This document shows, piece by piece, positions 56,261 through 64,000 of a DNA stretch of 64,000 bases. Made by a program: the position numbers and the translations under genes. Below the pieces are notes generated by a model. It saw nothing but the letters and a program-made list of their open reading frames with translations. It did no database searches and was not told where the DNA came from. Origin of the DNA: Verrucomicrobiia bacterium (GTDB lineage Bacteria > Verrucomicrobiota > Verrucomicrobiia > Limisphaerales > UBA11358); contig DASYEY010000256.1 in the NCBI GenBank assembly GCA_036498725.1, positions 5,611-69,610 on the forward strand. Reading direction: 5' to 3'. The number at the start of each line of letters is the position of its first letter. The stretch's first letter is position 1.

Positions 56261-56641
56261 GTGGGCGATGACATCACTGAAAAATATCTGCTCTTGTCCA
56301 ATTCTCATGACGGCAAATCCAGCGTCTCAATCAAATTCACACCAGTCAGGGTTGTTTGTCAGAATACACTGACGCTCGCACTCAATGACGGATCGGCTTG
56401 GCGAGTCTCCCATCATTCCGACATCCATCAGAAGCTAAAGCAAGCGAATCAGATGTTGGGACTGATCCATGAACGGTTTGATGATATGGAGCAGACGTTT
56501 CAGGCCATGTCTCGCGTAAAACTCAATTCTGATCGCTTGGCTCAATATCCCACCAGCCAGCCCGATTTAGTTCGATATGCTGAACTAGGGCTGCAGCTCC
56601 TTTTGGCAAAAGAGATAAATGTGAACTCATGTTATCTGTAA
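56261..56641 (+). pseudogene. Truncated DUF932-family (plasmid/ICE/phage-associated) gene remnant
   Basis: The 126-codon frame opens right after a stop codon. It starts mid-domain with YLLLSNSHDGKSSVSIKFTPVRVVCQNTL, the core DUF932 motif. The N-terminal half is missing and the C-terminus is divergent. The 3' end overlaps the convergent ATPase gene. Confidence 0.6.
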
Positions 56642-58161
56642 GCCTGGTAAAAGGCTTCGGCAACAAATTTGGTGAACTCCTCGGTCTTGTTATCGCTGCG
56701 GGCGATTACCTGGAATGGTTCGAGCTTCGCGATTTCGGACTGCAAATCCTTTGCGGTTTTGTTACTGCACCCGATGATGGATTGGATAGATGCCGGCACC
56801 ACACCTTCGCACTGGAAAATAAATGCGAACTCCAGAAGCTCCTGAAAGTTGAAGAATGACTGCTGGTAGTCATTAGGCGACTGCGACGCAAAAAAGACAA
56901 CGATACCCTTAGAGCGGCCTTCACGGATGATGCGTTGGAGGAAAATATTTTTTTGCGGCAGGTAATTGTGGGCTTCGTCAATCACCAGGACGCAACGAAT
57001 GGTGCGCCGCCCATTTTCCACCGGGCTGTCCGGCAGCGCCGCCATTTCCTTGTAGAGCCGTTCAATCACGAGATACGCCACCAGTTCCTTGAGGACAGGC
57101 ATCTTGTGCAAGTCGATGACCATGGTGCGGTTGGTAAGGCGCTCCAATGGATCGCGCTCGCTGCCATGTTTCCAAAACAGGTTGAACGTCGCGAGGTCCC
57201 GCAGCACTTCGACGAGGGAATCGTCGTTCTTGCCGTCATCGGCGTAGTCAGCCTGGACGATGTCGAAAACATCCTGAAAATCTGGATAGGGGCGGGGCGA
57301 ACCGGCGCGCTTGGCGTAGGCCGCGCGAATCGCTTCGGCCAAAGCGCCTTTCTGGACCACGCCCAGCTTGGAACTGATGGAGGCAAAGCTCTCGGCCTTT
57401 TCGCGGGCGGAAACGGTAATGGTCGTGTCGTCATAGGCCGGCAGCACGAACGGATTGATCGGCAGATTCTGACTGCCGTTGAGCAACGAAAAGGTCTGGG
57501 CCTTGCTGACTTCAACAAAATTTTCATTGGTCCCCACGTCCCCTTTGTAGTCAAACAGGATAAAATTGGTCTGGTGGCCAGATTGGAGACGTATGTCGGC
57601 GAGCAGTTTTAGCAGGAACTGGGTTTTACCGACACCGGGCTTGCCCATGATCGCCAAATGTGAATTGGCATGACGCACCGAGTTGTTGAATTCAATGACG
57701 ATGCTGCCCTTTGTCAGAATCTCGCGACCGATAAAAATATCCAGCCCTTTACCGCGCGCCTCACGGCGGCCTTCAAATTCCACGGTTTCAACCAGTCGGA
57801 CGAGAAGTTTGGCGGAATCCTGGCCACATTCCTTAAACAGCTTTTGCAAATGGACGCACCCATTATCTATATGGTCTTTGATGAATGACCGATTGGAATA
57901 AAAATCGTCTTCGCTGATGTCGGATCGCTGGTGAACCTGGGCGACCAGTGTGCGCATGAAGAGTTCGTCGGACCCAATAAAGGTCGGGCGTTTGATTTCC
58001 ACGCCGGTAAAATCAGAACTCCGGGCAACGTTCGCGCCTTCCGTGGCGAGCGAAAGCGAAAATGCCATGCGTGCCAAGATGAATTTTTCCAACTTGGTCT
58101 CGGCCCGCAGGGCACTCAAGACATCATCGGCCGGTTGTGAGGTAAAAAGTCGATCGGCCAT
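56632..58161 (-). CDS. DndE-like domain fused to a HerA/FtsK-like (DUF87-type) P-loop ATPase
   Basis: The first roughly 125 aa (ILARMAFSLSLATEG...EIKRPTFIGSDELFMRTLV...FIKDHIDNGCVHL) resemble DndE. Walker A is MGKPGVGKTQFLL and Walker B is RCVLVIDEAHNYLP. The start lies 1 nt after the upstream stop. Confidence 0.7.
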   Translation of the reverse strand: MADRLFTSQPADDVLSALRAETKLEKFILARMAFSLSLATEGANVARSSDFTGVEIKRPTFIGSDELFMRTLVAQVHQRSDISEDDFYSNRSFIKDHIDNGCVHLQKLFKECGQDSAKLLVRLVETVEFEGRREARGKGLDIFIGREILTKGSIVIEFNNSVRHANSHLAIMGKPGVGKTQFLLKLLADIRLQSGHQTNFILFDYKGDVGTNENFVEVSKAQTFSLLNGSQNLPINPFVLPAYDDTTITVSAREKAESFASISSKLGVVQKGALAEAIRAAYAKRAGSPRPYPDFQDVFDIVQADYADDGKNDDSLVEVLRDLATFNLFWKHGSERDPLERLTNRTMVIDLHKMPVLKELVAYLVIERLYKEMAALPDSPVENGRRTIRCVLVIDEAHNYLPQKNIFLQRIIREGRSKGIVVFFASQSPNDYQQSFFNFQELLEFAFIFQCEGVVPASIQSIIGCSNKTAKDLQSEIAKLEPFQVIARSDNKTEEFTKFVAEAFYQAYR

Positions 58162-58162
58162 A

Positions 58163-60154
58163 TCATTTCTCCCAAAAATATCCTTCTTTCAAGGTGGTTA
58201 ATTCCTGTCGTTGATCAAAGAGCAAATGGGCCGCGCCGCTTAAATGCGGCTCCAGTTGCTTGAAATAGTTTTTATCAATTTCCATGTCGGTGGAGAGAAT
58301 TACCACCTGATCCGCCGCATTGGGGAAATAGTTATTAATAATGTTGTCCCGGTGCGTGCTGTCGAGGCGTGATAGCGGCGTATCAATGATGATGGGCAGC
58401 TTTAGCTGGCTGGTTTGGGCAAGTCCCCAAAGCAGCGAGACGGCGAAAACCTCTTTTTCACCGGCGGAGAGGCTTGATTTGCGCATCTCATGGCCGCTAC
58501 GGTCGCGGATCGTGATTTCGTATGTTTTGTCATCAATGACCAGGTCTTGAATCAAGCCGCTTTTGCTGGAGAGCAAACGATACATCTCAAAGGTTTTATC
58601 CTGAAGCAAGGCGACCTTGCTCAAGCGGAGGCGCACCGTGAACTGGGTCAGGAGACTGGCAATGGCGTCGCATTCATCGAGGAGCAAGGTTTTTTCCTTG
58701 GAGACATTGTGCTTTTCAAAAAGTTTGTTCACCTCCAGCTCAATCTCGGCAATGCGGCGTTCCAAGGTGAGAACTTCCTCCTCCAAGCCGCGCAACTGCT
58801 CCGTCTTCCGGCCAATCTGCGTGGAATAGCCCTCCATCTCGGTTTGCAACTGCTGGAACAATTCCTTTTCGACCTCGGTGCTGACGCCGAAATGTTGTGT
58901 GCCGACGAGCCGCTTGAGTTCCACGTCCAATTCACGCTTTTCCTCGAGCATATTCATCAGCAGAAATACCTCGCTGGATTCGATTTCATCCATGCGCCCC
59001 AACACTCGCGCCGCGTCACGCTCAGACAAATTGAGAATCTTAGCCTTGGCACCGCCGTGGGTGCCCTCGCGTAGAAGTTTGAAAATGCGCTGCTCCAATT
59101 CCGCCATTTTTTCCGGCGACAATTTTTCCCGGTAGATCGGCTCTGGTTCCTCGACGACTCGCACGAGCTGCTTGGCCAACTCACCGGCGTGCTCATGGAT
59201 GGCTCCCTGCAAGGTGTCTTCGCGCTCTGAATCAATCTGTTTTTTCAGCGGATCAAAAATTTTGCCGGCCAACGCGAAGGGCAAAAACTTCTCGGCCAGC
59301 ATTTTGATTTCATTTTCCAACTGGCCGAGTCGGTTGGAAACTTGGAGTCGCCGCTTTTCATTCTGCCGGGTGGCTTCCTGAGTTTCAGGTTCGGCATGGA
59401 ACGCGGTCTGAAACCGTTTCTTGGCCGCTTCGTTACCGGTTTTTAGTTCTTCCAACTCGGTCGTTTTTTCCTTCTGCTCGGCCTTCTTCTTGGTCAACTT
59501 GCTTTGCTCCCGTTTCAATTCAGTTTTCTTGAAGTCGAGGTCTTCATCGGAAATCTCGACAAAATTCTGCCGCTCTTGCTGCTTGAGATAAATGATGTCG
59601 CTGGACAGGCGCGTGATGGACTGGATTCCTAGAGCGGCCTCCAACGAGGATTTTAACCGCACTTCCGAATGGTCATCCGCCGCGATTTCCTGGATTTTTT
59701 CGCCGTCAAAAAAGAAAAACTGCGTGATGCTGCGCGGGACCGTGGCATTGATGAAATCCTGCCAGATTTCCTTGTTTTGGACGGAAACCCGCTTGCCGTC
59801 CTTCACGACGACCAGTTTTTCCTCCAAATCCTGCGGTCTCGGTTTCTCCACCGCCCCGGCGCTCCAACTGCGTTTGACGATAATTTCCTCGTGGTCGTCG
59901 GTTTCAAAAGTCAATTCAAACGAAACGCTAGCGTTGCCCTTGGCGAGTTCCTTGCGGTTAATGTATCGGAAGATGGCCTCGGGCTTGGCACCATAGAGGC
60001 AAATGCTGATGGCCTCGGTCAACGAGGTTTTGCCCGCGCCATTCATACCGCCGATCAGGAAAATGCTTTTGCCGGAACTGCCGACCGGGAAGCGGATTTC
60101 CACGGGCAACTGGAACGACTTGTAATTATCAATTATGAGCTTGGTAAATTTCAT
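58163..60154 (-). CDS. DndD/SspC-like SMC-type ATPase
   Basis: N-terminus MKFTKLIIDNYKSFQ...GGMNGAGKTSLTEAI, followed by a coiled coil of about 450 aa. The C-terminal LSAGEKEVFAVSLLWGLAQ...LPIIIDTPLSRLDSTHR...YFP...QVVILSTDMEI closely matches the DndD signature and Walker B region as I recall it. The 663-aa length is typical for DndD. Confidence 0.85.
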   Translation of the reverse strand: MKFTKLIIDNYKSFQLPVEIRFPVGSSGKSIFLIGGMNGAGKTSLTEAISICLYGAKPEAIFRYINRKELAKGNASVSFELTFETDDHEEIIVKRSWSAGAVEKPRPQDLEEKLVVVKDGKRVSVQNKEIWQDFINATVPRSITQFFFFDGEKIQEIAADDHSEVRLKSSLEAALGIQSITRLSSDIIYLKQQERQNFVEISDEDLDFKKTELKREQSKLTKKKAEQKEKTTELEELKTGNEAAKKRFQTAFHAEPETQEATRQNEKRRLQVSNRLGQLENEIKMLAEKFLPFALAGKIFDPLKKQIDSEREDTLQGAIHEHAGELAKQLVRVVEEPEPIYREKLSPEKMAELEQRIFKLLREGTHGGAKAKILNLSERDAARVLGRMDEIESSEVFLLMNMLEEKRELDVELKRLVGTQHFGVSTEVEKELFQQLQTEMEGYSTQIGRKTEQLRGLEEEVLTLERRIAEIELEVNKLFEKHNVSKEKTLLLDECDAIASLLTQFTVRLRLSKVALLQDKTFEMYRLLSSKSGLIQDLVIDDKTYEITIRDRSGHEMRKSSLSAGEKEVFAVSLLWGLAQTSQLKLPIIIDTPLSRLDSTHRDNIINNYFPNAADQVVILSTDMEIDKNYFKQLEPHLSGAAHLLFDQRQELTTLKEGYFWEK

Positions 60155-60189: not shown

Positions 60190-60642
60190 TCAATTCCGGT
60201 TGCTGGACGGCCAAGAAAATAAATCCATGGATTTTTCGTCCTCCGCTTTTTTCTTGCGCCGCTTGGCCGGCGGCGGAATGGGCGCGGCGGACGGTTTTGG
60301 TTCGACCACCGCCGGAAGTTGGCTGGCCAAACGGGTCAGCGAATCCCGCAATTGATAGGCGAGCTTGCTACGGAGACGTTCGACTTCCTCTACCTTACAA
60401 ATATCCGAACTCAAATTGATTTTGATTTTGCGGAGGTCATCGGGAATGAGGATGCCCTGTTTCTCCAGCTTGCGAATGGTTTCGCCGATGGCGACCAACT
60501 GGCCGTTGATCTGGACTGGGTTTTTCTCACGGGAAAACTTTTCGACATGGCAGATGATTTCATCCAGTTCAGCCAGCAAGGTCTCGATCCGCTTTTCCAG
60601 CGACTCGAGATGCAGATGCGTTTGGTGGCCGCTTTCCGCCAT
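60190..60642 (-). CDS. Coiled-coil protein, paralog 3 (basic C-terminal tail; hypothetical)
   Basis: It shares the helical N-domain and the motif IRKLEKQGILIPDDLRKIKINL with the two upstream genes. The C-terminus is Pro-rich and then KRRKKK. The start was taken at the ATG at 60642, 2 nt after the upstream stop. Confidence 0.6.
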   Translation of the reverse strand: MAESGHQTHLHLESLEKRIETLLAELDEIICHVEKFSREKNPVQINGQLVAIGETIRKLEKQGILIPDDLRKIKINLSSDICKVEEVERLRSKLAYQLRDSLTRLASQLPAVVEPKPSAAPIPPPAKRRKKKAEDEKSMDLFSWPSSNRN

Positions 60643-60644
60643 AA

Positions 60645-61277
60645 TCAATGATGGTCTCCGTTCAGCTCCCACACGCCGCGAGGTGAGTTACTCTTCAAGA
60701 TGCCCTCTTGCACGAGATTGTAACGCTCCCAGCAGGTGTTATTTTCCCAAACCACCTCGCCGGACGCGCGTGTTTCCAGGTCGCCGGGCAAAAAACGGTT
60801 TTCCAAATGCTCCTCCATCCGCTTCAATGCTTCGTGAATGCTGGCCCGACCGTCGTGCGCTTTCAAAGCTTTGACCAGAAACTCGCGCAATACCTGTTTG
60901 TCGGTCCGGGGGACATTCGAGCGGGGGCGACGGTGCCGGGGTTTGGCGTCATGGTCCTTGGCCGGCAATGTTTTTTGAATTTCCGCCGACAAAGATTCCA
61001 GCTCGCCGCGCAAGGATTCCAACGCCTCGCCGACTTCCTCCTCCAAGCTCAACTCGGTCACCAAGGTGGTTTTCAAATTCCGAAGTTCCGTCGGGACCGA
61101 AATTCTTGACGACTCCAGCCGCTCGATGCTGCGAGCTACCTCGCGAAGCTGTTTGATTTTCTCGGTTGATTCCTCGCTGGGGACCAGGCCTAACAATTGG
61201 CCGGCAATCTCCCGCAATTCCCTGGTCAACACCTCGGCCCGTTCGGCGAGATGACGAGGATTGTGGGTAGCGGCCAT
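60645..61277 (-). CDS. Coiled-coil protein with a C-terminal Mrr_N-like winged helix, paralog 2 (hypothetical)
   Basis: The N-domain motif is IERLESSRISVPTELRNLKTTL. The C-terminal VLREFLVKALKAHDGRASIHEALKRMEEHL...GEVVWENNTCWERYNLVQEGIL...RGVWEL fits the Mrr N-terminal wHTH pattern. Confidence 0.65.
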   Translation of the reverse strand: MAATHNPRHLAERAEVLTRELREIAGQLLGLVPSEESTEKIKQLREVARSIERLESSRISVPTELRNLKTTLVTELSLEEEVGEALESLRGELESLSAEIQKTLPAKDHDAKPRHRRPRSNVPRTDKQVLREFLVKALKAHDGRASIHEALKRMEEHLENRFLPGDLETRASGEVVWENNTCWERYNLVQEGILKSNSPRGVWELNGDHH

Positions 61278-61280
61278 AGA

Positions 61281-61934
61281 TTATTTGGCGCGTGTGGCGG
61301 CAAACCGGGCAGTCAGTTCCCAATAGCCGCCATTGGTTTCATCCTTCACTGTGCCTTCTCGGACCATTACTCGGCGTTGCAGACAGGCATTGCGACGCCA
61401 AATCGGATTGTTGTTGTAATCGTCCAGATCAAGGTCGTCGGAGGTTAATTTGCCTTTCAGCATCTCACCTACTTCGTTGAGAACTGTGGTGGTTTTGGCG
61501 CGGCCATTATGGCTTTTAAGTGATTTAATGATACATTTGCGAAGCACGCTGTGAGCAGTGGTAGCTCCCGAATTGTGGCGTGCCTTGCGGTCGCCGGTTA
61601 CAGAAATCCCGCCCATATGAATCTTTGCCATTATTCTTGCCGTCTCCTGCTCAACCATGTCGAAAATATTTCGTGCCTCTTCAAACTGATGGGTTTGCAA
61701 AAGTAGGTCTGTTTTTAGATTTCGCAATTCATCTGGCACAGGGAGTTTCCTGTTTTCAAAACTTTTGATGGTCTTGGAAATCTCGTGTAACTGATCAACC
61801 TTTAGTGGTGCGTCCTTTGGAGGCCGATAGCGAGCCAGCGCGTCGGCCAAGTCGTCAAACTGGGAAATCAGCGTTTCGGCTTCGACCCGGAGCTTTTGCA
61901 AATCAACCGAATTATCAGAATCGTCTTCAGCCAT
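61281..61934 (-). CDS. Coiled-coil protein with a C-terminal Mrr_N-like winged helix, paralog 1 (hypothetical)
   Basis: The N-domain motif is IKSFENRKLPVPDELRNLKTDL. The C-terminus is VLRKCIIKSLKSHNGRAKTTTVLNEVGEML...NPIWRRNACLQRRVMVREG...GGYWEL. Confidence 0.65.
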   Translation of the reverse strand: MAEDDSDNSVDLQKLRVEAETLISQFDDLADALARYRPPKDAPLKVDQLHEISKTIKSFENRKLPVPDELRNLKTDLLLQTHQFEEARNIFDMVEQETARIMAKIHMGGISVTGDRKARHNSGATTAHSVLRKCIIKSLKSHNGRAKTTTVLNEVGEMLKGKLTSDDLDLDDYNNNPIWRRNACLQRRVMVREGTVKDETNGGYWELTARFAATRAK

Positions 61935-62118
61935 GATGTGGTTCAGGTTTTAGACCACCGGCGACAATTTCCTTCAAGGCCTCGTAGATGCCGTGGCGGC
62001 GATCCTTGAATTCGTATTCTTTAACGGTGTCGAGCAACTTCAACACCTTGTCGTAATTGACCTTGTGCTCGTCACAAAGTTGCTGCAACAGCCGTTTGTC
62101 TTCGACGGAAAGCTTCAT
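61927..62118 (-). CDS. 63-aa helical protein (hypothetical)
   Basis: It has an ATG start 2 nt after the upstream stop. Its 3' end overlaps the next start by 8 nt. The charged helical sequence is MKLSVEDKRLLQQLCDEHKVNYDKVLKLLDTVKEYEF. Confidence 0.5.
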   Translation of the reverse strand: MKLSVEDKRLLQQLCDEHKVNYDKVLKLLDTVKEYEFKDRRHGIYEALKEIVAGGLKPEPHHG

Positions 62119-62120
62119 GA

Positions 62121-63332
62121 TTATCTCCCGGAATGCGTTACGTGATAGATTAGCGGCTCCAGCTCCAAACCCAAGTCTTTTAGATTAGGCTGCTTCATCG
62201 TGAAAACCCGTGGCGATTTGCTCAGGGCGGAGAACACGATGTAGAGGTGATAATTTGCCAACTCGGCCGATTTCTCCAACTCGTTTGCGGAGAGGTAAAA
62301 TCCGTTTTGCAGATTTGGCCCAGTGGTGGCCTTAACCTCAATCGGGCGCTCCGTGCCGTCATCTTCAAACGAAAGAATGTCGTAACCCAAACCGTCCTCG
62401 CTATCGGCTACATGGTCAACCTTTTCTGCCAATTCCGATTTGCCGCCTTGAATGAGGCGCTGTTTCTCCAGGGCCAGCACGATCAACTCGCCACGGTCGC
62501 CGGTGCGCTTTGTTTTTTTTTGCCGGGCCTCGTAATCAATTTTGCCGCGACCGGTTGGCTGGTTCCCAGCGGCGGGAGGTAAAGCTGGCATGTCTCTTAT
62601 GAACGCCGCACCATCAATGGCCGTTCTGAGCATCGGGATGCCGGGAGCCGCACTGCCGGACTTCTTAGGATCAACCGGGTGACCAAACACTTCGTAAAGC
62701 AGGCGCATGTAAAGCGCGGGTGGCTGAGCTTTCAACTTTGGCCAGGTGGCGCGATACTCCATGAGCGCTTGCTGCATGTCCGCTTCACATTCGAACGCGC
62801 CGTCCAAATCTAACGCTGCTATGAAATGCTCCAGATGCTGCCAAGCATATATGGGGGCGAACTTTTCAGGGAAATAAACGAAAAGAATTTTCCCCTTGAA
62901 CATGGGAGACAGGGCGTTACCGGCAATTGCAGCAAAGTCGTTGGTTGCTGCGGCACGAATTAAATCAACAATCGCCTGCTTAATTGAAGCAAAGGCGGCT
63001 GATAGATTGTTTCCCCATTTCTTTGTGAAACGGTATTCTTTGGGCGTATTTTCGCCAAATTCGCCGAAATACACACCAAACTTAGGCGAAAACGCACCGA
63101 CGATTTTCCCGAAAGTGTCCATCTCCCGTTCGAGGCGATAGCAGAAAGAGCGATTGGCTTTACCTTTGCCGATGACGTATTCATCTAGCTCGAGGCTGAG
63201 AATTTTATGGGACGGAAAATCGGCAACGAAGTCCTGACGGGTTTGCTCGGCTTGTTTCCATTCTTCCAGATCGCGCTGCGCGAACATGGGGACGAGCCGG
63301 GCAATTTCGTCCGCCATCGCCAGCCGATTCAT
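62121..63332 (-). CDS. DUF3883-type (PD-(D/E)xK-like) nuclease domain protein with an unassigned N-terminal domain
   Basis: The C-terminal GDRGELIVLALEKQRL...GYDILSFEDDGTERPIEVKATTG...FYLSANELEKS...YHLYIVF matches the DUF3883 pattern. The start was chosen at MNRLAMADEI (ATG 63332), which forms an ATGA overlap with the upstream stop. Confidence 0.75.
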   Translation of the reverse strand: MNRLAMADEIARLVPMFAQRDLEEWKQAEQTRQDFVADFPSHKILSLELDEYVIGKGKANRSFCYRLEREMDTFGKIVGAFSPKFGVYFGEFGENTPKEYRFTKKWGNNLSAAFASIKQAIVDLIRAAATNDFAAIAGNALSPMFKGKILFVYFPEKFAPIYAWQHLEHFIAALDLDGAFECEADMQQALMEYRATWPKLKAQPPALYMRLLYEVFGHPVDPKKSGSAAPGIPMLRTAIDGAAFIRDMPALPPAAGNQPTGRGKIDYEARQKKTKRTGDRGELIVLALEKQRLIQGGKSELAEKVDHVADSEDGLGYDILSFEDDGTERPIEVKATTGPNLQNGFYLSANELEKSAELANYHLYIVFSALSKSPRVFTMKQPNLKDLGLELEPLIYHVTHSGR

Positions 63333-64000
63333 TTGGCGACTGCCTCCTCTATCAGTTGTTCGACGCGGGTTTTGGCTTCTGCGAGGAGCTGCTTTGATTT
63401 GGCCTCGGCAGCGGCACCACGGTCGTAAAGCTTGCGAATTTCTTTCTGCACTGAATCGGGGGCTTCCCAAATTTGAAACTTCCGAATGTCGAAGGGATAC
63501 AACTCGATTTGGCCGGACGAACCACGCTGGTGCATTTCCACCTGCATCTGACCGGCGCGACTGTTCAGGTAAAAGGACGCATACACCGGGTCCAAGGTGG
63601 AGGAACGCAGAATGGTGACGTGATTGTCTGGCAGCGCATTCTCGTTGGCTAGATAGGGCGCAACCCGCCCAAGCGTCCCACGGCCAGTGCCATTCATTAG
63701 GATGTCACCGTAGCGGATTTGTAGGTCTGCCAGTGGACCGGGCATGGCCTGGCGGTTGCCGTCGAGAATCACCTTATTGGGTTGGACGTGTTTGGAATTG
63801 ACCACCGGCAAACCCGAATCACTGTAAAACGGTTGTTTGCCGCGATTACAAAATGTTAAATGACGGGTCAATGGCGCGAGTGTGATTTTCTTTGGCAGCT
63901 TTTGAACGAAGCTCTTGAACTCTGGCAAAAAATGCTCTGAATCCAACCTTCTTGATTTCTCTACTTCACTGAATTGCGCCGTGTAACCAACGGGCCAGTC
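63329..64000 (-). CDS. hsdS: Restriction-modification specificity subunit (HsdS-like, single target-recognition domain), 5' end at or beyond the window edge
   Basis: A Methylase_S-type TRD (VVNSKHV...GDILMNGTGRGTLGRV...DNHVTILR...YLNS..GQ.Q) is followed by a C-terminal conserved helix (EIRKLYDRGAAAEAKSKQLLAEAKTRVEQLIEE). The frame stays open to position 64000 (DWPVGYTAQFSEVEKSRRLDSEHF). Confidence 0.75.
   Translation of the reverse strand, partial: DWPVGYTAQFSEVEKSRRLDSEHFLPEFKSFVQKLPKKITLAPLTRHLTFCNRGKQPFYSDSGLPVVNSKHVQPNKVILDGNRQAMPGPLADLQIRYGDILMNGTGRGTLGRVAPYLANENALPDNHVTILRSSTLDPVYASFYLNSRAGQMQVEMHQRGSSGQIELYPFDIRKFQIWEAPDSVQKEIRKLYDRGAAAEAKSKQLLAEAKTRVEQLIEEAVAK

Follow-up and report, generated by a model that had tools for sequence, protein, structure and literature searches.

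Genes at the locus

At one end of the window (the whole 64,000-nucleotide stretch of DNA analyzed here) lies a tight, co-directional array of genes on the minus strand. It encodes an S (specificity) subunit, a PD-T4-1/NOV_C nuclease, the small protein Sp-DndD, three paralogs of a family that we call readers, the ABC ATPase DndD, and a protein in which a DndE domain is fused to a HerA/FtsK-like ATPase. Intergenic gaps or overlaps are no larger than 8 nt, with the exception of the 35 nt that precede DndD. A scan for promoters and terminators returned background levels only, and no tRNA was found.

The Type-I-like S subunit gene is represented by its 3' half (nt 63329 to 64000, minus strand), the frame staying open to nt 64000 and running beyond the window end. 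Its product matches the PADLOC profile Specificity_I (E = 8e-57) and also mad5, and the gene is 67% identical to the S gene of a related locus, L018, where the S gene comes after a nuclease-methylase gene. With the S gene cut off by the window end, no methylase gene comes into view here. The likely ATG start of the PD-T4-1-type gene (nt 62121 to 63332, minus strand) lies at nt 63332 and overlaps the S-gene stop as ATGA. Its product matches PD-T4-1 in PADLOC (E = 4e-76), carries a NOV_C (DUF3883) PD-(D/E)xK-like domain (E = 3e-16), and is a candidate effector nuclease; it occupies a variable "cargo" slot that holds RhuM or DarT plus Macro in other loci. Sp-DndD (nt 61927 to 62118, minus strand; 63 aa) is homologous to the C-terminal tail of DndC: it scores 33 bits against PF20306 (cut-off, 27.2) and aligns with positions 404 to 454 of 481 of the DndC profile and 395 to 444 of 447 of TIGR03183.

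The three reader paralogs share an N-terminal coiled coil. Paralog 2 (nt 60645 to 61277, minus strand; 210 aa) adds a C-terminal Mrr_N-like winged helix, although the reader-domain matches in the window are weak and this one (E = 2e-4) falls below the Pfam cut-off. Paralog 1 (nt 61281 to 61934, minus strand; 217 aa) has the same architecture by alignment and shares ~30% identity with paralog 2 and with the corresponding "rd" genes of other loci. Paralog 3 (nt 60190 to 60642, minus strand; ~150 aa), recognized by alignment and by a JGI gene call, retains the shared coiled coil only, ends in a basic tail, and has orthologues at loci L013 and L015. Neither the reader-family profile nor Sp-DndD retrieved anything above noise from PDB sequences.

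The next gene (nt 58163 to 60154, minus strand; 663 aa) encodes a DndD-clade ABC ATPase that contains an inserted coiled coil and scores 373 bits against TIGR03185 (cut-off, 245.85) and matches the PADLOC DndD profile at E = 3e-128. Its conserved motifs comprise a Walker A (GGMNGAGK), a signature (AGEKE), IDTPLSRLDS, and HR. Membership of the CxC/Zn-hook clade was ruled out because the protein has only two non-adjacent cysteines and no CxC motif.

One nucleotide past the TGA stop of DndD stands the ATG of the last gene in the operon, the DndE-HerA/FtsK fusion, which occupies nt 56632 to 58161 of the minus strand and encodes 509 aa; the open reading frame lies at exactly the coordinates of the original prediction. 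A plus-strand DUF932 gene fragment (nt 56261 to 56641) abuts the 3' end of the operon. It matches PF06067 (E = 2e-29) over profile positions 58 to 151 of 227 only and is a mobile-element remnant outside the system.

A DndE domain and a HerA/FtsK ATPase in one protein

The simplest objection to a fusion of this kind is that an assembly or sequencing error joined two neighboring genes, a concern already attached to the original prediction. The gene is authentic, since its full-length homologues number in the hundreds, and the chance that it is an artefact is negligible. At E ≤ 1e-5 the protein has 884 homologues, the best 120 of which are full length at 508 to 509 aa; an independent JGI contig encodes the identical protein, and full-length homologues come from isolates and metagenomes across many phyla. 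Dozens of ~500-aa clusters (50% identity) can be aligned over the whole fusion protein at identities as low as ~25%. At least 104 clusters (50% identity) match it at E < 1e-30, and they are spread over the Bacillota, Bacteroidota, Desulfobacterota, Verrucomicrobiota, Armatimonadota, and other phyla. NCBI and JGI label such proteins "DndE family protein."

The DndE domain spans residues 4 to 107 (nt 57841 to 58152, minus strand) and comprises two tandem ribbon-helix-helix (RHH) units. All of the DndE-type motifs that the original prediction named are present, with FILARMAFSLSL, VEIKRPTFIGSDELFMRTLV, and DHIDNGCVHL falling inside these residues. The prediction had staked the N-terminal domain on a profile or structural match to DndE, and both were found. 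Pfam DndE (PF08870) aligns with residues 4 to 107 over profile positions 1 to 105 of 111 with E = 2.3e-12, and the 47.7 bits of this match exceed the cut-off of 25. Single-sequence phmmer did not find DndE in the PDB and a family profile was needed; a profile built from 23 diverse N-terminal domains recovered the solved DndE structures 7X4E (E = 9.4e-19), 5WTU (2.8e-8), and 4LRV (6.4e-8). The AlphaFold2 (AF2) model of residues 1 to 135 (pLDDT, 93.1; pTM, 0.87) repeats a strand-helix-helix arrangement twice (strand 5-6, helices 9-22 and 26-41, a linker, strand 55-56, helices 58-76 and 93-111), which is the two-RHH, single-polypeptide trait given for the DndE family in the text of PMC10853773 that concerns it. 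When this model was searched against the PDB with Foldseek, the check that had been proposed for the domain, the best 17 matches were all DndE (probability 1.00; target-normalized TM, 0.61 to 0.76), and the model superposes on 4LRV, 7X4E, and 5WTU.

Profile scores place the domain within the DndE family but apart from the canonical DndE of phosphorothioation (PT) systems: the domain reaches 42.7 bits with the canonical equivalog model TIGR03184, below the cut-off of 71.85. Characterized DndE proteins bind nicked double-stranded DNA, and one of them nicks DNA; no catalytic residues have been defined in the literature. The nicked-DNA-binding residues R19 and K23 of archaeal DndE (7X4E) align here with S16 and A20. 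Since these positions are not conserved, we make no claim of nick recognition from sequence. The basic patch at the turn between helices 1 and 2 is nonetheless retained, as it is in canonical DndE, with R19, K23, and K26 of the fusion protein conserved among its close homologues.

The HerA/FtsK-superfamily P-loop ATPase domain occupies residues 140 to 491 (nt 56689 to 57744, minus strand), as judged from phmmer, Foldseek, PADLOC, and conservation. The predicted Walker A (GKPGVGKT, residues 173 to 180; nt 57622 to 57645, minus strand) and HerA-style Walker B (VLVIDEAH, residues 391 to 398; nt 56968 to 56991, minus strand) are both in place. The profile and structure matches uphold both domain assignments made for this protein. 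DUF87/HerA (PF01935) aligns with residues 165 to 369 at 27.6 bits (cut-off, 23.2). The closest match to residues 140 to 491 is the C-terminal domain of DptH/DndH (7ES4), both by sequence (phmmer, E = 1e-21; 24% identity) and by fold (Foldseek, E = 8.5e-12; target TM, 0.64), the latter with a full-length AF2 model that is mediocre (pLDDT, 70.5) and leaves the linker at residues 128 to 178 unmodelled. PADLOC profiles concur, with the DndH C-terminus at E = 7e-43 and mad8 at E = 1e-22; within the DndH profiles the match is confined to the C-terminal ATPase region (e.g., positions 1333 to 1714 of 1715). The domain belongs to the clade of the DndH/DptH C-terminus and is more distantly related to Mad8 of the MADS defense system.

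Across 38 homologues reaching down to 25% identity, K179, D395, E396, and Q427 (in an ASQS motif) are invariant, and R413 and R416, in REGRSKG, are at least 90% conserved. Alignment to 7ES4 assigns Q427 to the sensor-1 position and R413/R416 to the arginine finger; according to the part of PMC10853773 that deals with the superfamily, a glutamine sensor and an arginine finger are the defining signature of HerA/FtsK. The catalytic motifs are intact. The fold, too, is similar to that of solved members: besides 7ES4, Foldseek returned TdpA, VirB4, TrwB, and SIR2-HerA, with E values between 1e-4 and 1e-3. It is reasonable to infer that the fusion would couple DNA recognition to a predicted hexameric translocase.

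Could the protein instead serve a mobile element in DNA transfer or segregation, as an ATPase akin to the VirB4/TraG/FtsK coupling proteins? The protein does weakly match the TrwB, VirB4, TraD, and FtsK families, the DUF932 remnant adjoins the gene, and DUF932 together with a D5 primase adjoins the related locus in Paenibacillus. The DndH/DptH C-terminal domain is, however, by far the best match, the partner genes are of restriction type, and the conserved neighborhood contains no type IV secretion, relaxase, or partition genes. Among 72,556 plasmids there is no full-length member apart from one distant match at 30% identity, and phage and viral collections, including IMG/VR, have none and yielded distant ATPase matches only; a mobile-element or phage origin is thus unsupported. 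We regard a role in DNA transfer as very improbable.

Related loci and the methylation module

We surveyed ~90 related loci, with denominators that vary by gene (64 or 56 loci, or 33 well-covered ones). DndD adjoins the fusion gene in 63 of 64, Sp-DndD is present in 53 of 56, and at least one reader protein (one to three per locus) in 42 of 56. The invariant core across the ~90 loci is Sp-DndD, DndD, and DndE-HerA. Upstream of it, a fusion of a PD-(D/E)xK nuclease with an N6-adenine methylase accompanies an S subunit in 26 of 33 well-covered loci (79%), in fixed order and orientation and often with overlapping stop and start codons. One locus with a complete set (methylase, S, Sp-DndD, reader, DndD, and DndE-HerA) is L010, in Paenibacillus polymyxa (CP097770.3, positions 3353066 to 3374592). 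Pairwise identities of the fusion protein are tracked by those of DndD (r = 0.97), Sp-DndD (0.84), the methylase (0.84), and, far more loosely, the S subunit (0.31). In these related loci the linked methylase carries an HSDR_N_2 nuclease domain (residues 83 to 193; E = 8e-23) and also matches N6_Mtase and Eco57I; of 25 sequences, at least 90% retain a D...ExK motif. The best NCBIfam match of the methylase is MAD2 of MADS (E = 1e-80; 271 bits, where the cut-off is 720), and that of the linked S subunit is MAD5 (E = 5e-37; 128 bits against 400); by these profile scores the two proteins are homologous to MAD2 and MAD5 and are not their equivalogs. The C-terminal domains of the reader family are interchangeable: Mrr_N in 17 of 49, DUF4357 in 10, RAMA in 8, and SeqA-C in 2.

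One alternative is that the fusion belongs to a genuine PT modification system, in which DndD and the DndE domain would have their DndABCDE roles, the HerA domain would add translocation, and the genes for DndC and a cysteine desulfurase would lie at other places in the genome. DndD does exceed the equivalog cut-off of TIGR03185, Sp-DndD shares homology with the tail of DndC, and, according to the Dnd literature, the housekeeping desulfurase IscS can replace DndA. The same literature holds that DndC has no substitute among housekeeping PP-loop ATPases, and no DndC-like open reading frame was found: the SGG[KR]DS PP-loop motif is absent from all six frames of the 64-kb window and of ~100 loci (flanks of up to 10 kb), and PAPS_reduct is absent from every Pfam-annotated neighborhood. 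Nor was a DndA/IscS cysteine desulfurase found in the operon or the annotated neighborhoods, a search that covered linked genes. Together with the equivalog score of the DndE domain (above) and the conserved modification module of N6-adenine methylase and S subunit, these results make a PT system improbable. As far as the window and the ~100 loci show, the context is not one of phosphorothioation; what is conserved around the fusion gene is an N6-adenine methylase bearing a nuclease domain, along with an S subunit and domains of methylation-reader type.

A second alternative deserves more weight, yet we still think it unlikely. Sp-DndD, the reader, DndD, and DndE-HerA could form an autonomous, modification-independent system of defense or DNA surveillance that senses DNA structure (nicks, ends, or intermediates of replication or transfer) in the manner of ABC/SMC systems of the Lamassu or Wadjet type, with the methylase and S subunit constituting a separate restriction-modification (RM) system in a shared island. 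Seven of the 33 well-covered loci lack the full methylase/S module and have housekeeping genes on their flanks: L005, L006, L013, L051, L058, and L073 have the core with neither methylase nor S subunit, and L016 has no full-length methylase. The closest relatives, L013 and L014 (94% identity), have neither gene. The core may therefore work alone, or the modules may be separate neighbors. Unrelated defense cargo (DarTG, RhuM, or PD-T4-1) is inserted between the S and Sp-DndD genes, S-subunit identities hardly follow those of the fusion protein, and the preference of DndE for nicked DNA would suit a sensor of DNA structure. Against autonomy stand the fixed, frequently overlapping arrangement of methylase and S genes in 26 of 33 loci and the methylase identities that track those of the fusion protein; in addition, the RAMA, SeqA-C, and Mrr_N domains of the readers are of types tied to adenine-methylation sensing, and homologous methylase, S, and HerA parts are paired in MADS, which is methylation-dependent.

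We consider it somewhat more probable than not (roughly 0.55) that the fusion protein serves as the motor subunit that engages DNA in a defense system of MADS/Type-I-like character, one associated with methylation and not with phosphorothioation. Under this scheme the methylase and S subunit would mark self DNA at S-specified sites, and the reader proteins, with their common coiled-coil N-terminal domain and interchangeable Mrr_N, RAMA, DUF4357, or SeqA-C modules, would report methylation status. The DndD dimer and the DndE domains would clamp and scan DNA, while a HerA ring, crowned by six DndE domains in place of the HAS domain of classical HerA, would translocate double-stranded DNA and supply ATP-driven reeling, as the SF2 motor of HsdR does in Type I restriction. 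Cleavage would fall to the nuclease domain on the methylase, to an embedded nuclease (here NOV_C), or to both; Sp-DndD, which corresponds to the DndC tail as a separate protein, would probably bind DndD and serve as its adaptor or regulator. The scheme further predicts that the N-terminal domain of the readers binds DndD and that all DndE domains lie on the same face of the ring.

A bolder version of this proposal we advance only tentatively. DndD and DndE-HerA may be the ATP-driven DNA-handling engine of an unrecognized class of adenine-methylation restriction, in which an ABC/SMC-like clamp and a hexameric pump replace the SF2 motor, the nuclease resides on the methylase, readers built on one docking domain swap m6A modules, and Sp-DndD fills the DndC docking site. 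If this were true, Dnd-type machinery would scan DNA in general, whatever its modification. By the census, the DndD-DndE core of this system appears to work alongside an adenine methylase and to do without sulfur chemistry, which bears on the question in the Dnd literature of what DndD and DndE do and whether they are modification-agnostic DNA scanners; the census also links Dnd-type parts, through common methylase, S, and HerA modules, to the validated and mechanistically opaque MADS.

Comparison with described systems

The DndE-HerA architecture is not new. In the passage that concerns it, Rakesh, Aravind, and Krishnan (NAR 2024; PMC10853773) describe HerA/FtsK domains "fused to DndE" beside a DndD-related ABC ATPase, place them in clade 3 of the HerA/FtsK tree, and cite Krishnan et al. 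(NAR 2020) for the arrangement. The remark in the original prediction that no characterized example was known therefore holds in one respect, in that the literature searched yielded no experimental study of a DndE-HerA fusion, and fails in another, in that the architecture had been described computationally. Since the fusion is on record, the gene cannot count as a discovery; it is useful as a clear and compact representative of a widespread system for which the literature searched offers no experiments. Architecture and DndD-related neighbor are identical in their proteins and ours, their HerA domain is likewise related to that of some DndH proteins, and the Sp-DndD family PF20306 stems from the same line of work. 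We differ on context, which the one sentence given to it there calls PT modification, whereas our census found N6-methylase/nuclease, S, and reader genes and no PT genes.

Of the DndABCDE components, DndD is present and DndC and a linked DndA/IscS are not. The tight operonic pairing of DndE with DndD is common to canonical systems and to this one, as is the fold, with its two-RHH topology, of DndE from Escherichia coli B7A (4LRV/5WTU) and Natronorubrum bangense (7X4E). Canonical DndE, in contrast, is a stand-alone protein of ~110 to 135 aa that works with DndC and DndA, whereas the domain in our protein is joined to an ATPase, lacks DndC as a partner, and falls under the TIGR03184 equivalog cut-off. 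With the C-terminal domain of DndH/DptH (7ES4) the ATPase shares Walker A and B, the glutamine sensor-1, and the arginine finger. DndH, however, is a protein of ~1,700 aa that carries another seven domains toward its N-terminus, among them a restriction endonuclease, and that has DndF and DndG as partners; the neighbors here include no match to DndF or DndG, and nothing of the multi-domain N-terminal part of DndH is found.

The PbeABCD systems (CxC-ABC-ATPase-DndE) resemble ours in being sometimes linked to methylases and not to PT genes. They differ in that our ATPase is of the DndD clade without CxC, there is no HKD-SF2 helicase (PbeA), the methylase is an N6-adenine and not a cytosine enzyme, and the small protein is well conserved (mean identity, 59%) rather than fast-evolving and disordered.

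MADS (mad1-8; Maestri et al., 2023 preprint/2024) is an experimentally validated, methylation-dependent defense that needs the HerA-like Mad8. Like the system proposed here, it is a multi-gene assembly that uses methylation to tell self from non-self and requires a HerA-like ATPase, and three of its components, MAD2, MAD5, and mad8, are matched by the methylase, the S subunit, and the ATPase domain, all below NCBIfam equivalog cut-offs. MADS has parts of its own (the kinase Mad6, the DptG-like Mad7, the AbiEii/Toprim protein Mad3, and the DUF4276 protein Mad4), whereas our operon has DndD, the DndE domain, Sp-DndD, and the reader family. The MacSyFinder model of its authors makes the Mad6 kinase, the DptG-like Mad7, and Mad8 mandatory; the window matches only mad8 (partially) and mad5, and the operon contains no kinase or DptG-like gene. 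An E. coli match followed as a route to a MADS locus turned out to be DptH.

Type I RM systems share with these loci an S subunit with two target-recognition domains (TRDs), an HsdM-like N6-methylase, and the N-terminal PD-(D/E)xK nuclease domain of HsdR. They differ in that here it is the methylase that bears the nuclease domain, and an SF2 motor is absent, which leaves DndD and the HerA domain as the sole ATPases. The logic that we propose as common to both is ATP-dependent translocation followed by cleavage.

The fusion protein and its two domains

The 509-residue product of the ORF at 56632-58161 (minus strand) carries every motif named in the original prediction: the DndE-type patterns all fall inside residues 4-107, Walker A (GKPGVGKT) occupies residues 173-180, and Walker B (VLVIDEAH) residues 391-398. 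In Pfam, residues 4-107 score 47.7 bits for DndE (PF08870; cut-off 25), and residues 165-369 score slightly over the cut-off for DUF87/HerA. A single-sequence search of the PDB reached the ATPase region alone (residues 140-491; 7ES4, the DptH C-domain, E=1e-21), so we turned to a profile derived from 23 varied N-terminal domains (alignment A2). It matches all three solved DndE structures (7X4E, E=9.4e-19; 5WTU, 2.8e-8; 4LRV, 6.4e-8), covering almost the entire DndE chain in each. For residues 1-135, AF2 gives a confident model (pLDDT 93.1, pTM 0.87) that takes the form of two repeats of a strand and two helices, a tandem ribbon-helix-helix (RHH). Each of its 17 best Foldseek matches in the PDB is a DndE chain (probability 1.00, target TM 0.61-0.76, rmsd ~3.5 Å); lower in the ranking stand noise and the F relaxosome's tandem-RHH protein. 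Profile and structure confirm the predicted DndE identity.

The HerA/FtsK-like P-loop ATPase predicted to follow it is confirmed as well. In PADLOC, residues 132-506 align to the very end of DndH, at its C-terminus (E=7e-43), and less strongly to mad8 of the methylation-associated defence system MADS (E=1e-22). The full-length AF2 model is mediocre (pLDDT 70.5, linker residues 128-178 unmodelled); the best Foldseek match of its ATPase half is again 7ES4 (E=8.5e-12), followed by TdpA, VirB4, TrwB and SIR2-HerA. In a set of 38 homologues reaching down to 25% identity, K179, D395, E396 and Q427 never vary, and R413 and R416 rarely do. These residues form the signature (Walker A/B, Gln sensor-1 and arginine finger) by which HerA/FtsK is defined in PMC10853773.

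An assembly artefact joining two ORFs, which the original prediction named as a refuting condition, is refuted by an identical protein on an independent JGI contig and by hundreds of full-length homologues. There are 884 homologues at E<=1e-5, the best 120 of which are all 508-509 aa, and 1.84 billion representatives, searched exhaustively, yielded 1,265 matches. Of these, 104 fall below 1e-30, including dozens of ~500-aa clusters aligned with the fusion end to end. A role in conjugation or segregation is very improbable, given that no full-length member occurs among plasmids, phages or IMG/VR.

The architecture is not new: PMC10853773 (2024) describes DndE fused to HerA/FtsK beside a DndD-related ABC ATPase, citing Krishnan et al. 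2020 (its reference 24). Fusion homologues are named "DndE family protein" or "DndE" at NCBI and JGI. The original prediction's remark that no characterised example is known holds biochemically, as the literature searched contained no experimental study of the fusion, but fails for the architecture. The gene belongs to a known, experimentally uncharacterised class, and its interest rests mainly on the system-level reading rather than on the fusion itself.

A conserved operon and its census

The fusion gene closes an operon of eight co-directional genes on the minus strand, in which neighbouring genes overlap or stand apart by no more than 8 nt, except for 35 nt before DndD. The gene for a Type-I-like S subunit (from 63329 past 64000), its frame open to the window end, is followed by a PD-T4-1/NOV_C nuclease-type gene (62121-63332) whose start codon overlaps the stop of S (ATGA); the TTG start annotated for this ORF, at 63470, probably lies too far upstream. 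Next come Sp-DndD (61927-62118, 63 aa), three paralogous small proteins that we call readers (61281-61934, 60645-61277 and 60190-60642), and DndD (58163-60154; TIGR03185, 373 bits against 245.85; CxC motif absent), with the ATG of the fusion gene lying 1 nt past the DndD stop. A DUF932 fragment (56261-56641, plus strand; profile positions 58-151 of 227) adjoins the operon's 3' end. A related Paenibacillus locus is also flanked by DUF932 fragments (L010/L011, 2256-2950) and by a D5_N/DUF5906 primase, a hint that integrative elements may carry the system.

We compared 99 loci from GTDB genomes, Pfam-annotated contigs on which exact homologues are encoded, and JGI metagenomes, labelling ORFs by BLAST against the window proteins and representative neighbours and counting only loci with sufficient flanking sequence. 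The recurrent order is methylase, S, cargo, Sp-DndD, zero to three readers, DndD and DndE-HerA, often followed by a further reader paralog. DndD adjoins the fusion gene in 63/64 loci, Sp-DndD is present in 53/56, at least one reader in 42/56, methylase and S lie upstream in 26/33, and a reader paralog lies directly downstream in 18/74. Pairwise identities track those of the fusion protein for DndD (r=0.97), Sp-DndD (r=0.84) and methylase (r=0.84), whereas S subunits diverge freely (r=0.31), like TRD-swapping specificity subunits.

The cargo slot between S and Sp-DndD is variable, holding unrelated defence genes (PD-T4-1/NOV_C at 62121-63332 in the window, RhuM, or DarT+Macro, i.e., DarTG) or nothing; L012, L016, L018, L020, L021 and other census loci have the slot too. 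The closest genome match (L007 9491-10750; uncultured Verrucomicrobiae MAG, contig_46619; 90% identity) is a decayed copy in which Sp-DndD and a reader fragment run directly into fusion residues 261-509, DndD and the DndE domain being deleted. This match also points to a Verrucomicrobiota genome as the source of the window. In two metagenomic loci (L093, L094) a methylase or RhuM gene is joined straight to a 5'-truncated fusion gene without DndD, apparently by similar internal deletion; loss of the DndD/DndE part may be a recurrent decay.

Partners and proposed function

The linked methylase (~920 aa) combines an N-terminal HsdR-type PD-(D/E)xK domain (HSDR_N_2, residues 83-193, E=8e-23; conserved ADIxVY...ExKKP; L018 1288-4059 and L010 3736-6456 among 25 methylases) with N6_Mtase and Eco57I domains and a C-terminal region of ~300 residues outside assigned domains. 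Its D...ExK nuclease motif is kept in at least 90% of the 25 sequences. The best NCBIfam matches of methylase and S are MADS MAD2 (E=1e-80) and MAD5 (E=5e-37), both below the equivalog cut-off. Since this gene stands directly upstream of S in 26/26 related loci with an S gene, the window's own copy probably lies just past nt 64000, where the S gene (63329-64000) is cut.

The readers (49 sequences, alignment A4; ~150-250 aa, mostly ~210 aa) share an N-terminal coiled coil of ~100 residues with the motif QLxEIxKxIxxLExxGxxVPDxLRxLK, and we found no description of them in the literature searched. One to three tandem paralogs precede DndD, often with one past the fusion gene; members occur in the window (60190-61934, minus strand) and in L003-L006, L012, L016, L018, L086, L090 and L091. 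Their C-terminal domains vary by locus: Mrr_N in 17 of the 49, DUF4357 in 10, RAMA in 8 (best E=3e-20), SeqA-C in 2, and otherwise an HTH-like type or none, as in the third window copy. Mrr_N, DUF4357, RAMA and SeqA-C are DNA-binding modules known from restriction enzymes and from the recognition of hemimethylated GATC.

A phosphorothioate context does not hold for the operon. The PP-loop motif SGG[KR]DS is missing from every reading frame of both the window and the census loci, and Pfam-annotated neighbourhoods contain no PAPS-reductase or linked desulfurase; DndC and DndA are thus absent. A phosphorothioate role with DndC encoded outside the 64 kb is unlikely. Sp-DndD (PF20306, a Pfam family of its own) is a free-standing homologue of the DndC tail (its last ~50 residues; profile positions 404-454 of 481), as conserved as the enzymes (mean pairwise identity 59%), suggesting that the tail is a DndD docking peptide that survives here without the sulfur-transfer enzyme.

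We therefore read the fusion, at a probability of roughly 0.55, as the DNA-binding motor subunit of a methylation-associated, non-phosphorothioate defence system. A tentative and clearly less probable alternative is that the four-gene core (Sp-DndD, reader, DndD, DndE-HerA) is autonomous and the methylase-S pair a frequent neighbour: the closest relatives (L013/L014, 94% identity) and 7/33 well-covered loci lack methylase and S. No methylase gene is visible within the window. For the methylation-associated system, we hold the detailed steps with much less confidence. Methylase and S would mark self DNA; readers would attach by the N-domain they share and signal whether DNA is methylated; a DndD dimer with DndE domains would clamp or scan DNA, a role that PMC10853773 proposes for DndD-DndE in general. 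The HerA ring would reel in dsDNA, six DndE domains occupying the place of classical HerA's HAS domain, and cleavage would fall to the PD-(D/E)xK domain of the methylase and/or the embedded nuclease.

Comparison with known systems

Characterised DndE proteins favour dsDNA that carries a nick, and the archaeal DndE itself has nicking activity. The residues with which the archaeal protein binds, R19 and K23, however, align with S16 and A20 in the fusion protein, whose sequence therefore gives no ground for asserting nick recognition. MADS, according to the supplement of its preprint, comprises an HTH regulator, an N6-methylase, an AbiEii/Toprim protein and DUF4276 (Mad1-Mad4), then an S subunit, a kinase, a DptG-like protein and a HerA-like protein (Mad5-Mad8), with methylation-dependent phage defence needing Mad2-4 and Mad6-8. 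Both systems have methylase, S and HerA modules, whereas the DndF/G-like parts of MADS are replaced here by DndD, a DndE domain, Sp-DndD and the reader family. The logic we propose is that of Type I systems, with the SF2 motor swapped for an ABC clamp and a hexameric pump.
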